Source of the DNA: a virus
Lineage: Duplodnaviria > Caudoviricetes
IMG/VR virus record: IMGVR_UViG_3300037484_000435
Coordinates: 481,323 to 545,322 of that record
Reading direction: 5' to 3' (one strand)
DNA length: 64,000 nucleotides
Shown here: one piece after another, positions 34,798 through 62,653 of the stretch
How the letters are laid out: every line of letters starts with the position of its first letter
Numbering within the stretch: position 1 is the first letter of the stretch
Notes under the pieces: generated by a model
Told to the model about the DNA's origin: nothing
Database searches by the model: none
What the model saw: the letters and a program-made list of their open reading frames with translations, nothing else
Made by a program: the position numbers and the translations under genes

Positions 34798-34897
34798 GCC
34801 GTAGTTAGGTACGCGACTATGAACAAAGGTGCTACGATGCTAGCTTATGTGAACTGGAGTGATTAGTTCCGTGGTTCGAGCCCACGGTGCGGCCCCA
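34798..34897 (+). ncRNA. Degenerate tRNA-like RNA (100 nt)
   Basis: gccgta/tgcggc acceptor-like stem, ccgtgg-ttcgagc-ccacgg T arm, 3' CCA; no canonical anticodon arm. Confidence 0.5.
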
Positions 34898-34902
34898 TCT
34901 AT

Positions 34903-35077
34903 ACCATGCCCCTCGGAAGTTAGCCAAATGTTAAAATAGCTTGAAGGTCGGTCGACAGACTGGATGGTGTTCACAAGAGGTGGGACTGGGGAAACAATGA
35001 GGGACTCGACAGCTTTACTAGTAAGGGCTTAGAGGGAACTATGAGTTTCGGGGGTTCAAATCCCTCGCATGGTACCA
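34903..35077 (+). ncRNA. tRNA-like RNA A (175 nt): acceptor + T arm + CCA enclosing a large insert
   Basis: ACCATGC/GCATGGT-A-CCA; ggggg-ttcaaat-ccctc. Confidence 0.65.
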
Positions 35078-35084
35078 AAATTAT

Positions 35085-35213
35085 ACCTCGCCCCGGAATG
35101 TAGGTAACCGTTAACTTGAAGGTCTGTCGACGGACTGGAGAGCGTTTGCGGGGAAGTAGTCAGGGAAAATACAATAGCGTGTTTGCAAGGTTCGATTCCT
35201 AGCCGAGGTAACA
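35085..35213 (+). ncRNA. tRNA-like RNA B (129 nt), paralogue of A
   Basis: ACCTCG(C)/(C)CGAGGT-A-ACA; caagg-ttcgatt-cctag; shares cttgaaggtcNgtcgacRgactgga with A. Confidence 0.6.
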
Positions 35214-60532: not shown

Positions 60533-61191
60533 TGGATGCAAAAATCTGGGGAAACGCTGGTGGAGAAATCATAAAACAAAGGTACCACGATCGGTACAAC
60601 GCGGATCCCAACTACTGTAAGTTTTGTGGTAAAAAAATAGAAATTGCTGATGGGTCAACTCCCGCCGCAACAAAGAAGAAAAAGTTTTGTGACCATTCTT
60701 GTGCTGCGTCTTACAACAACCTAGCTTCACCAAAACGTAAGCCCGAGGTAACACACTCTTCATGCTTAGAATGTGGTAAACTGGTAGAGGTAAAAAGACA
60801 CCCATCTGGGGGATTTTCTCGTAGGAAATATTGTAATAAGTGTAGACAAGAAGTAAGGTACAGAAAAGGGGCGAAATTCTCTACTGATTACTTATCCTCA
60901 TCTTTTAGCCAATTAACTAAAGGTGAAATAAGGAGTAGAACTCAGGACGCACATAGGACAAGAACCGCAATTACAAGGCATTCCCGTCTTGTATACAGAC
61001 GATCTGGAAGGCCTTATGTCTGTCTTGCATGTGGGTATACTCTTCATGTGCATGTTTGTCATATTAAGGACATACAGGAATTTGGCCCCAATGCATTTAT
61101 CTACGAAATTAACGACCCCGATAACTTGATCACACTTTGCCCAACACACCATTGGGAGTTCGATCATGGTTATTGGAAAATGCCCAAATAA
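60532..61191 (+). CDS. HNH homing endonuclease, paralogue of 33928-34704, overlapping tRNA-Arg(TCG)
   Basis: CKFCGKKIE...KKFCDHSCAA; CLACG..HVHVCHIK...EINDPDNLITLCPTHH. Confidence 0.87.
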   Translation: MDAKIWGNAGGEIIKQRYHDRYNADPNYCKFCGKKIEIADGSTPAATKKKKFCDHSCAASYNNLASPKRKPEVTHSSCLECGKLVEVKRHPSGGFSRRKYCNKCRQEVRYRKGAKFSTDYLSSSFSQLTKGEIRSRTQDAHRTRTAITRHSRLVYRRSGRPYVCLACGYTLHVHVCHIKDIQEFGPNAFIYEINDPDNLITLCPTHHWEFDHGYWKMPK

Positions 61192-61885: not shown

Positions 61886-61958
61886 GAAGTTGGTGACTAC
61901 GCGCAAAGAAAGGGAACCCAACGGAACCTTAGGTGTCTAAAAAAGAAACAAGTACAAT

Positions 61959-62036
61959 CGCGGGATAGGGGAGAGGCCGTCCCCACCAGTTTCATATGCT
62001 GGAGATCGCAGCGTTCAAATCCTGCTCCCGCTACCA
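61959..62036 (+). tRNA. tRNA-Met(CAT), initiator-like, encoded CCA
   Basis: CGCGGGA/TCCCGCT-A-CCA with unpaired C1; ccagt-ttCATat-gctgg (lacks the fMet triple G-C anticodon stem). Confidence 0.75.
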
Positions 62037-62046
62037 TATTCAAAAA

Positions 62047-62164
62047 CCAAAGATTATCTGAAGGCTGAAGAAGCCGGGTAGTGGTATCAATTCCCGAAAA
62101 TCTTTGGGCGGAGGAGAGGGACGCCTCAAGTGGGTGCTAAGCAGTGTCAATCCCACCCTCCGTA
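62047..62164 (+). ncRNA. Two back-to-back mini tRNA-like units lacking an anticodon arm (62047-62107, 62108-62164)
   Basis: 9-bp and 7-bp closing stems, each with two hairpins ending ...gtRtcaat(t)ccc. Confidence 0.4.
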
Positions 62165-62172
62165 ACGTCTAT

Positions 62173-62327
62173 CCTGGGCTAGTCAAGGATGATAGACTAG
62201 TGCATTCTGAGTAAGGGAAGAAACGAAAGTTGGCGAGTAACTAGGAAAGCGCGCCTAGCGGAAGTCAATGAGTAAGGTCCAACAGAAAGGAATGTAGCAG
62301 GGTTCGATCCCCTCGACCCCGGGACCA
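62173..62327 (+). ncRNA. tRNA-like RNA C (155 nt) with anticodon loop replaced by a large structured insert
   Basis: cctggg/cccggg-A-CCA; D-like agtc/gact; gcattc/gaatgt stem enclosing the insert; aggg-ttcgatc-ccct. Confidence 0.55.
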
Positions 62328-62452
62328 AAAAATAGTGGGTAAATCTACTACACACGGAGGGCCGTAAGGTATCGCTCCACCAGAGTAGGTTTCGTAAGTC
62401 CCCCTCGGGCGTCGTTTGGGGGAGCCCTGCTTTTGAAGATGTGCCTCACGAT

Positions 62453-62529
62453 GGGGGTGTAGCTCAGTTGGCTGGAGCGCGGTCCTGATAAGGCCGAGGA
62501 CGGAGGATCATGCCCTCCCACCCCTACCA
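62453..62529 (+). tRNA. tRNA-Ile(GAT) with non-canonical T-loop, encoded CCA
   Basis: GGGGGTG/CACCCCT-A-CCA; cggtc-ctGATaa-ggccg; ggagg-ATCATGC-cctcc. Confidence 0.85.
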
Positions 62530-62578
62530 CAAAAACTAACCATTCTCCTTTGGTAAGAATACGAAAAGGAGATTTACA

Positions 62579-62653
62579 ATGACTACATTACTTATTATTA
62601 TTTTGCTTATCTTTCTTCTAGGTGGTGGAGGATTCTGGTACCGAAGGAGGTAA
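62579..62653 (+). CDS. 24-aa membrane micropeptide MTTLLIIILLIFLLGGGGFWYRRR
   Basis: Manual translation; RBS aaggag. Confidence 0.7.
   Translation: MTTLLIIILLIFLLGGGGFWYRRR

Follow-up and report, generated by a model that had tools for sequence, protein, structure and literature searches.

What is encoded in an unusually long gap between two transfer RNA (tRNA) genes near the end of a phage genome? The genome is the virus record IMGVR_UViG_3300037484_000435 (Duplodnaviria; Caudoviricetes), a single contig of 545,322 base pairs (bp) with 42% G+C. The window analysed here is its last 64 kb (64,000 nucleotides (nt), positions 481,323 to 545,322), and coordinates refer to the window unless they are marked as genome. 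The tRNA genes of this phage and the open reading frames (ORFs) downstream of them are packed with almost no spacer, and thus an ORF-free gap of 416 nt at 62037-62452, between tRNA-Met (61960-62036) and tRNA-Ile (62453-62529), stands out. It contains an element of 156 nt (62172-62327; genome 543494-543649), in which an earlier note, made from the sequence alone, had seen a tRNA-like shell with an enlarged domain in place of the anticodon loop. The sequence of the element is non-random, derived from a tRNA and highly structured. It is neither a tRNA, with or without an intron, nor a transfer-messenger RNA (tmRNA), and by sequence it does not belong to the family of RNAs A and B, encoded at 34903-35213. 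Probably, it is a small structural or regulatory RNA.

The features on which the analysis is based are all on the plus strand:

62037..62452, plus strand: the whole spacer, ORF-free, from tRNA-Met to tRNA-Ile; helices tile it with linkers of 0-3 nt (folding stability z -2.78), and its ends can pair (62035-45/62431-41).
62172..62178, plus strand: acceptor-like 5' strand TCCTGGG; the leader before it ends in TCTAT, as does the leader of RNA A.
62179..62200, plus strand: D-like arm, with a 6-bp stem CTAGTC/GACTAG (62179-62184/62195-62200) and a 10-nt loop AAGGATGATA containing GG.
62201..62296, plus strand: 96-nt arm at the position of the anticodon arm, one interrupted hairpin.
62298..62314, plus strand: T arm CAGGG-TTCGATC-CCCTC, with 4 base pairs and a C-C mismatch.
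62315..62317, plus strand: extra CGA between the T stem and the acceptor 3' strand, non-canonical for a tRNA.
62318..62327, plus strand: acceptor 3' strand CCCGGGA (62318-62324) followed by CCA (62325-62327).
62328..62338, plus strand: A-rich trailer AAAAATAGTGG, directly after the CCA.
62404..62434, plus strand: downstream "anti" segment, the 23-bp partner of 62297-62323, followed by TTTT (62431-62434).

All stems and motifs named in the earlier note are present at 62172-62327. The top half of a tRNA is retained, including an invariant T loop, an acceptor helix, an encoded CCA, a D loop bearing GG, and a leader and an A-rich trailer of the tRNA type. The T-loop invariants G53, U54, U55, C56, R57, A58 and C61 are all found in GGG-TTCGATC-CCC at 62300-62312. 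The D-like arm has an alternative pairing with a canonical 3-4 bp stem GTC(A)/GAC. When 159 nt are folded in isolation, the cloverleaf-like fold is only 1.7 kcal/mol above the minimum free energy (MFE). The acceptor can be read in two ways. Either all seven pairs form, the last A is paired and the discriminator base is absent, or this A is the discriminator A73 and the stem has six of seven pairs, with a C-C mismatch at 7-66. Thus the proposed A-CCA end is ambiguous. Both readings leave 2-3 extra bases (CGA) between the T stem and the acceptor strand, and the variable region is 2 nt long.

How often would such an arrangement arise by chance? A relaxed scan, for a T-arm motif, an acceptor with at least six of seven pairs and NCCA, identified 25 loci on the plus strand: 22 called tRNAs and three new ones, namely an element called Z (34798-34897), RNA A (34903-35079) and the element considered here. 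The same scan gave four loci on the minus strand and about 2.6 per shuffled genome, and at that rate an accidental likeness to tRNA within a structured intergenic region might be suspected. However, when a D-like stem and a closing stem, each of at least 6 bp and correctly placed, were also demanded, the background fell to 0.03 per shuffled 545-kb genome, with no locus on the minus strand. The element also lies on the tRNA strand, is flanked by two tRNAs and has a trailer of the tRNA type. A chance likeness is hardly credible. As the strict shell is so rare in shuffles and on the minus strand, tRNA ancestry is very likely. The earlier proposal of a tRNA-derived and tRNA-shaped RNA with no usable anticodon is supported.

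The 3' end points in the same direction. CCA is encoded by 31 of the 40 tRNAs of the phage, and tRNA trailers are A-rich (on average 4.3 A in the first 8 nt, at a genomic A frequency of 0.30). When GGGA-CCA and the trailer are compared to the corresponding 3' end of tRNA-Asn(GTT) copy 2, trailer included, 18 of 19 positions agree, the single difference being the missing discriminator. This suggests descent from a tRNA gene, the body of the element aligning weakly to tRNA-Asn. The leader, CCA and trailer fit co-transcription and end maturation of the tRNA type. The nine tRNA genes without encoded CCA run straight into ribosome-binding sites of the AAGAAAGG type, and CAAGAAAGGA is found downstream of many of the CCA-encoding genes.

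The 3' half of the element has a second partner. The T arm with the acceptor 3' strand (62297-62323) can pair with 62404-62430, about 100 nt downstream, forming 23 bp in blocks of 9, 4 and 10. The predicted energy of this duplex, -41.8 kcal/mol, was not reached in any of 1000 shuffles, and within the 64-kb window 62404-62430 is the best partner for 62297-62323, the next best one having -35.6. The same test applied to the 3' ends of the 40 tRNAs and of five other tRNA-like elements yielded downstream values from -12 to -30, compared to -38.7 here; RNAs A, B and Z have no exceptional downstream complement. The MFE of the spacer is -140.4 kcal/mol, as opposed to -128.7 kcal/mol with the tRNA-like fold enforced. 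On the other hand, in a transcript folded only to 62330 the acceptor pairing forms. Since each of the two sets of pairings would by itself hardly arise by chance, the region is read as encoding two alternative states. The earlier note had overlooked this much stronger partner of the T arm and acceptor 3' strand, and thus the tRNA-like fold is only one of two encoded folds. The 9-bp GC-rich helix of the alternative fold (62297-62305/62422-62430) abuts UUUU and encloses 116 nt; because of the enclosed length a consensus terminator scan does not call it. Neither a sigma-70 promoter nor a standard terminator was called next to the element.

The arm at the anticodon position had been described as a multi-hairpin domain of about 85 nt. 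Its interior is exactly 85 nt, the closing stem GCATTC/GAATGT (62202-62207/62290-62295) is present and extends to 8 bp (62201-62208/62289-62296), and the hairpin CTAGG-AAAGCGCG-CCTAG is found at 62241-62258. However, the interior and the closing stem form one long rod rather than several hairpins, and the hairpin AAC-GAAA-GTT has ensemble probability 0. The rod is a single interrupted hairpin with helices 62201-08/62289-96, 62216-18/62278-80, 62229-34/62264-69 and 62241-45/62254-58, whose probabilities are 0.86-0.99. Compared with dinucleotide shuffles, its stability corresponds to z from -2.6 to -2.9 (-2.63 for 62201..62296). The internal loops contain three copies of GAGUAA (62209, 62235, 62270), each facing a strand with GAA. 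The consensus of the loop-E (sarcin-ricin) motif is AGUA opposite GAA, and when it is applied here, all three internal loops appear to be of the loop-E type. A GAGTAA triple within 150 nt occurs once in the genome, both strands considered; among 200,000 shuffles matched for composition, 9 produced one. Other pairs of GAGTAA, outside the element, belong to coding or ribosome-binding-site sequence.

The apical loop of the rod, AAAGCGCG (62246-62253), overlaps the palindrome GCGCGC (62249-62254). The tetramer GCGC is 4.6-fold depleted in the genome (145 occurrences, 672 expected under a Markov model), which looks like restriction-site avoidance, and in tRNA genes the density of the remaining sites is 11-fold higher. 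There are only eight GCGCGC sites in 545 kb, one of them being this loop. Its retention in an exposed loop of a GCGC-poor genome argues for constraint. The earlier note had suggested a more general palindrome theme; hexamer palindromes show no general enrichment (3 compared to 1.7-2.4 expected), and what stands is the GCGCGC loop in a genome avoiding GCGC. CCCGGG is also low genome-wide (9 compared to 14.5). An 8-nt apical loop with a 6-nt palindrome is present in RNAs A and B as well (GTCGAC), and this is the one respect in which the theme extends to other RNAs of the genome. The loop is predicted to form a self-duplex of 6 bp with -12.9 kcal/mol, and the predicted homodimer of the arm has -55.1 kcal/mol compared to -46.2 kcal/mol for two monomers, a gain of 8.9.

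Despite its likely origin, the element is not recognized as a tRNA. Rfam (the window at the gathering score, and the 701-nt region 61900-62600 at E<=10) identified the two flanking tRNAs and left the element unmatched. At E<=10 it gave no intron match either, in agreement with the earlier remark that no group I core is present. ARAGORN did not call the element at default settings, and with introns allowed and the threshold reduced to 80% it produced only a poor Leu(AAG) with mismatched stems. A phage-specific covariance model, built from 24 of the phage's own tRNAs, assigns 43-76 bits to real tRNAs, 20.2 to RNA A, 15.4 to Z and 8.1 to the element, where it matches the T arm alone. Thus the shell is less clean than had been thought. 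The tRNA models fail because of the extra CGA, the discriminator or stem defect and the 2-nt variable region. In place of a 7-nt anticodon loop on a 5-bp stem there is the 96-nt interrupted hairpin, and the acceptor region does not combine a 7-bp stem stacked directly on the T stem with a discriminator and CCA.

Intron-bearing tRNA genes have been reported in megaphages (PMC6784885), and thus the element could be a decoding tRNA interrupted by an "enigmatic" intron of the Lak megaphage type and spliced with the RtcB ligase that the phage encodes. Indeed, CT-GAG-T at the start of the insert could provide U33 and a GAG anticodon. However, when every contiguous segment of 40-99 nt was removed in turn and each of the 4,110 variants was submitted to ARAGORN, none was called at default, and nine calls at 95% of the threshold were poor and mutually inconsistent. 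As no single deletion yields an acceptable tRNA, this reading is not supported. Besides, position 37 would be U, a Leu(GAG) tRNA is already present, the body of the element has no long variable arm, and the junction defects fall outside the insert. No gene for the tRNA splicing endonuclease tRNA_int_endo (PF01974) was found in the genome, nor is there a group I core. On balance, an intron is most improbable. A tmRNA was rejected: there is no Rfam match, and the ARAGORN calls, seen only at the 80% threshold, span neighbouring genes with unidentified tags and are spurious. The third acceptor pair is C-G or U-G, not G-U.

The genome contains several other odd tRNA-like RNAs, as the earlier note had stated. 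RNAs A and B share with the element the genome, strand and tRNA-cluster context, the tRNA ends and the enlarged arm at the anticodon position. RNA A differs from it in having 20 bits on the tRNA model and a canonical junction of the T arm and acceptor, whereas the element has 8 bits, from the T arm alone. Local alignment of the element gives z 0.2 with A and 2.2 with B, compared to 12.4 for A versus B. No similarity was observed to RNAs A, B and Z, to the Ile variant named in the earlier note or to the neighbouring modules of the spacer, and no paralogue was found. Therefore, calling the element a third tRNA-shelled RNA is right for the architecture and for nothing more. Element Z, 100 nt long, is situated between tRNA-Gln(TTG) and RNA A; it has an acceptor with six of seven pairs, a canonical T arm CGTGG-TTCGAGC-CCACG and C-CCA, and is called neither by ARAGORN nor by Rfam.

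Searches for relatives of the element gave nothing. Neither blastn with word size 7 nor a covariance model of the element detected paralogues in the genome. Among GenBank phages, the only DNA match of the region was to tRNA-Met. Exact and degenerate patterns of the element were absent from viral, metagenome and genome contigs, and the GAGTAA-spacing pattern retrieved irrelevant tandem repeats only from the contig collections. Protein scans with the flanking ORFs found no relatives, except that a 97-aa flank protein has one homologue, P0001 (92% identity), on a JGI contig of 1,890 bp; further collection scans with this protein returned nothing. The terminase is 50-61% identical to those of four IMG/VR contigs, which have no tRNA genes and no match to the element, its covariance model included, and it is less than 27% identical to that of any GenBank phage. 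Such distant matches make the phage an orphan lineage in the accessible data.

Three protein genes of the phage are also of interest here. The genes of the RtcB RNA ligase (genome 473977-475053, minus strand; 278 bits) and of a protein of the CCA-adding/poly(A) polymerase family (genome 480894-481271, minus strand; 91 bits) are located 0.05-7 kb ahead of the window start. A Ro60/TROVE (Rsr) homologue of 528 aa is encoded at genome 67097-68683 (= L039:856-2442), between tRNA-Glu(CTC) and tRNA-His; TROVE proteins are carried by a minority of jumbo phages (PMC7824862). Together, these three genes indicate that the phage invests in tRNA-shaped RNA biology. The partners of Ro60 in bacteria and phages are Y RNAs mimicking tRNAs, one of which is cut by ribonuclease P (RNase P) and given CCA (PMC4201824). 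This raises the possibility that the element is a second Y-RNA-like partner of the phage Rsr, its rod being the protein-binding site and its tRNA-like end protecting the RNA. The rod does contain GGUCCAA, similar to the Ro-contacted GGUCCGA, and CGAAAG. Nevertheless, this explanation is very improbable. The element is about 69 kb from rsr, on the same strand and across the contig ends, whereas YrlA genes are within 4 kb of it (PMC4201824). The motif GNCGAAN0-1G is represented only by AACGAAAG, inside the arm and with the first G missing. The topology is the reverse of that of YrlA: the arms follow each other as in a normal tRNA, and the molecule ends at the acceptor and not at a Ro stem. Finally, there is a better candidate directly upstream of rsr.

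The latter is a Y-RNA-like candidate gene of about 125 nt (L039:~421-546) with no Rfam match. Its two ends pair with each other, and a U run comes after them. It also contains GACCGAAUGG, a motif similar to the GGUCCGA that Ro contacts, as well as a hairpin GCUC-GCAA-GAGC and a T arm (ACGGUUCGAAUCCGU); its score on the phage tRNA model is 17.1 bits.

The 40 tRNA genes (ARAGORN, whole record) are all on the plus strand and are grouped in two blocks, one at each contig end (0-82 kb and 515-545 kb), with one more gene at 394 kb. Besides tRNAs, the window contains two HEARO RNAs with IscB, TnpB genes, genes of nicotinamide adenine dinucleotide (NAD) salvage and an HNH endonuclease. The ORF of the latter (219 aa, PF13391; 60532-61191) has its 3' end 10 nt inside tRNA-Arg(TCG), which starts at 61182, and homing-type nucleases adjoin several tRNA genes of the phage. 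One tRNA, with anticodon CTA, would recognise TAG stop codons, and an unusual tRNA of 73 nt is called Tyr(ATA) by ARAGORN (genome 47126-47202 and 61073-61145, respectively). Lengths of 83-91 nt are found in several class I tRNAs (Gly, His, Trp, Pro, two Arg, Gln).

The spacer on both sides of the element is structured too. At 62047-62107 there is a stable hairpin with a 9-bp closing stem CCAAAGATT/AATCTTTGG (z -2.9). It is followed at 62108-62166 by a Y-shaped tRNA-like mini-element of 56 nt (z -2.2) with a 7-bp acceptor-like stem GCGGAGG/CCTCCGT, a hairpin GAGG-GACG-CCTC, and a 5-bp stem GTGGG/CCCAC with a loop of 17 nt, this stem being stacked directly on the acceptor strand; an anticodon arm is absent, and the 3' end of the mini-element is A-ACG, not A-CCA. 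Downstream, 62341-62392 folds into a stable hairpin with a 9-bp closing stem (z -2.6), inside which are a tetraloop hairpin CC-GTAA-GG and, at 62356-62382, a mini-helix GGAG...CTCC with ACCA after it.

The reading we favour, tentatively and at somewhat less than an even chance, is that the element is a tRNA-derived, non-decoding RNA module matured from a tRNA operon, with the rod as its working part and a 3' half that may be captured by the downstream complement. It would be transcribed together with the phage tRNA genes, and, owing to the retained top half, a stable RNA of about 155 nt would be released by RNase P, acting at the 5' end, and by 3' trimming to CCA. The exposed GC-only palindromic loop of the rod could form a kissing-loop homodimer, and the GAGUAA/GAA internal loops could dock proteins. 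The tRNA-like fold would be the first-formed, kinetic state. The 23-bp helix with UUUU would be a later and more stable one, serving as a processing stalk or as a terminator before tRNA-Ile. A more elaborate version is a bistable tRNA-derived riboregulator. Here the tRNA-like fold would form first and be either captured, by an RNase P cut or by binding of a tRNA-recognising factor, or else invaded by the complement, the resulting 23-bp helix and U tract leading to termination or processing before tRNA-Ile; released copies would in addition pair through their GCGCGC loops, and the outline of the design would be common to A and B. This version is improbable.

Several observations weigh against the favoured reading. 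The tRNA-like unit taken alone has z of only -1.63. The junctions are irregular, with a 2-3-nt insertion, a 2-nt variable region and a discriminator that is missing or else a C-C mismatch, and the element is rejected by Rfam, ARAGORN and the phage-specific model. Some hexamer occurs at least three times in 6.7% of insert shuffles, and thus the GAGUAA triple alone is weak and only suggestive. A homologue is absent from all collections scanned, hence there is no support from covariation or conservation. Finally, in full-spacer folding the acceptor and T pairs of the tRNA-like fold have probability 0 and the alternative is better by 11.7 kcal/mol. The last point is in line with another explanation, that the entire spacer (62037-62452, about 400 nt) is the real unit, a multi-arm RNA left after the flanking tRNAs are cut off, in which the T loop and CCA are vestigial and no tRNA-like fold is formed. 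Its arms would be 62047-62107, 62108-62163, a small hairpin at 62167-62197, the 96-nt arm and a 134-nt rod (62297-62430). Both the MFE structure and the ensemble of the spacer use the 23-bp helix. The modules abut each other, each being more stable (z from -2.2 to -2.9) than the tRNA-like unit, and the spacer ends pair at 10 of 11 positions. GOLLD and ROOL are large structured RNAs adjoining phage tRNA genes, so that the theme itself is known. On the other hand, there is no Rfam family match, the terminal 11-nt pairing is within chance (about 1.6 expected for 640 nt by our estimate), and thermodynamic folding of 400 nt is unreliable. The full set of tRNA landmarks, including the invariant T loop, the CCA spacing and the tRNA-type trailer, is hard to explain if they are not used. 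The large RNA is a serious competitor, if an unlikely one.

It is distinctly unlikely that the element is a duplicated tRNA gene in decay, possibly one for Asn, which accumulated small indels and an expansion of, or insertion into, the anticodon arm and is now functionless. Every tRNA detector fails on it, the 3' end compared to tRNA-Asn copy 2 looks like a 2-nt insertion with loss of the discriminator, and the element is a singleton in the genome and collection scans. However, the acceptor helix is paired at seven of seven positions although no tRNA of the phage has one like it, the rod formed by the insert is markedly stable, the avoided GCGCGC is retained in the apical loop, a 23-bp complement lies just downstream, and there is neither an ORF nor junk-like low complexity. 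Together, the paired acceptor, rod, GCGCGC, complement and absence of low complexity point to a sequence under constraint.

Giant phages are rich in tRNA genes, and non-decoding tRNA-shaped genes are increasingly reported among them. The present case adds testable features, that is, a tRNA top half with a stronger downstream partner, which may be a switch or a processing stalk, and a rod with a GC palindrome in a genome that purges GCGC. Should these features be real, the tRNA fold has a further use in phages, as something that processing enzymes can grip, and new working parts evolve on it. A pseudogene, in contrast, would show a route by which such genes decay in very large phage genomes.

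The closest known analogues are distinct in one or another respect. RNAC and RNAD of phage T4 (species 1 and 2 stable RNAs) are matured together with tRNAs. Like the element, they are small and non-decoding and have their genes within a phage tRNA cluster; they are not known to have a rod of 96 nt, a palindrome in an apical loop or a complement downstream. They are RNAs of yet unknown function (PMC9697503). The intron-bearing tRNA genes of Lak megaphages (Devoto et al. 2019, PMC6784885) are similar in being over-long tRNA-like genes with an insert in the anticodon arm that belongs to no known intron class. However, removal of the insert restores a tRNA with an anticodon in Lak and not here, where the defects reach the junction of the T arm and acceptor. 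YrlA Y RNAs (Chen et al. 2014, PMC4201824) are also non-coding and mimic the D arm, T arm and acceptor, but they are circularly permuted (T arm, acceptor-like loop, D arm) and end in a Ro-binding stem; the GNCGAAN0-1G motif near the 5' end and the location within 4 kb of rsr are features of YrlA that the element does not have. The tRNA-like domain of tmRNA has an acceptor helix, a T arm, CCA and a long irregular helix replacing the anticodon arm, whereas the 156-nt element lacks the G3-U70 pair, the tag reading frame and the pseudoknots. The loop of the dimerisation initiation site of human immunodeficiency virus type 1 (HIV-1) is AAGCGCGCA. It resembles the apical loop of the rod in having 5' adenines followed by the GC-only palindrome GCGCGC, with a possible 6-bp kissing dimer, although the molecule and its biology are unrelated, the palindrome of the element has its last C predicted to pair within the stem, and dimerisation of the element is only predicted. 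A tRNA-shaped non-decoding RNA is not new as a kind; new here are the competing downstream helix and the retained GC palindrome.

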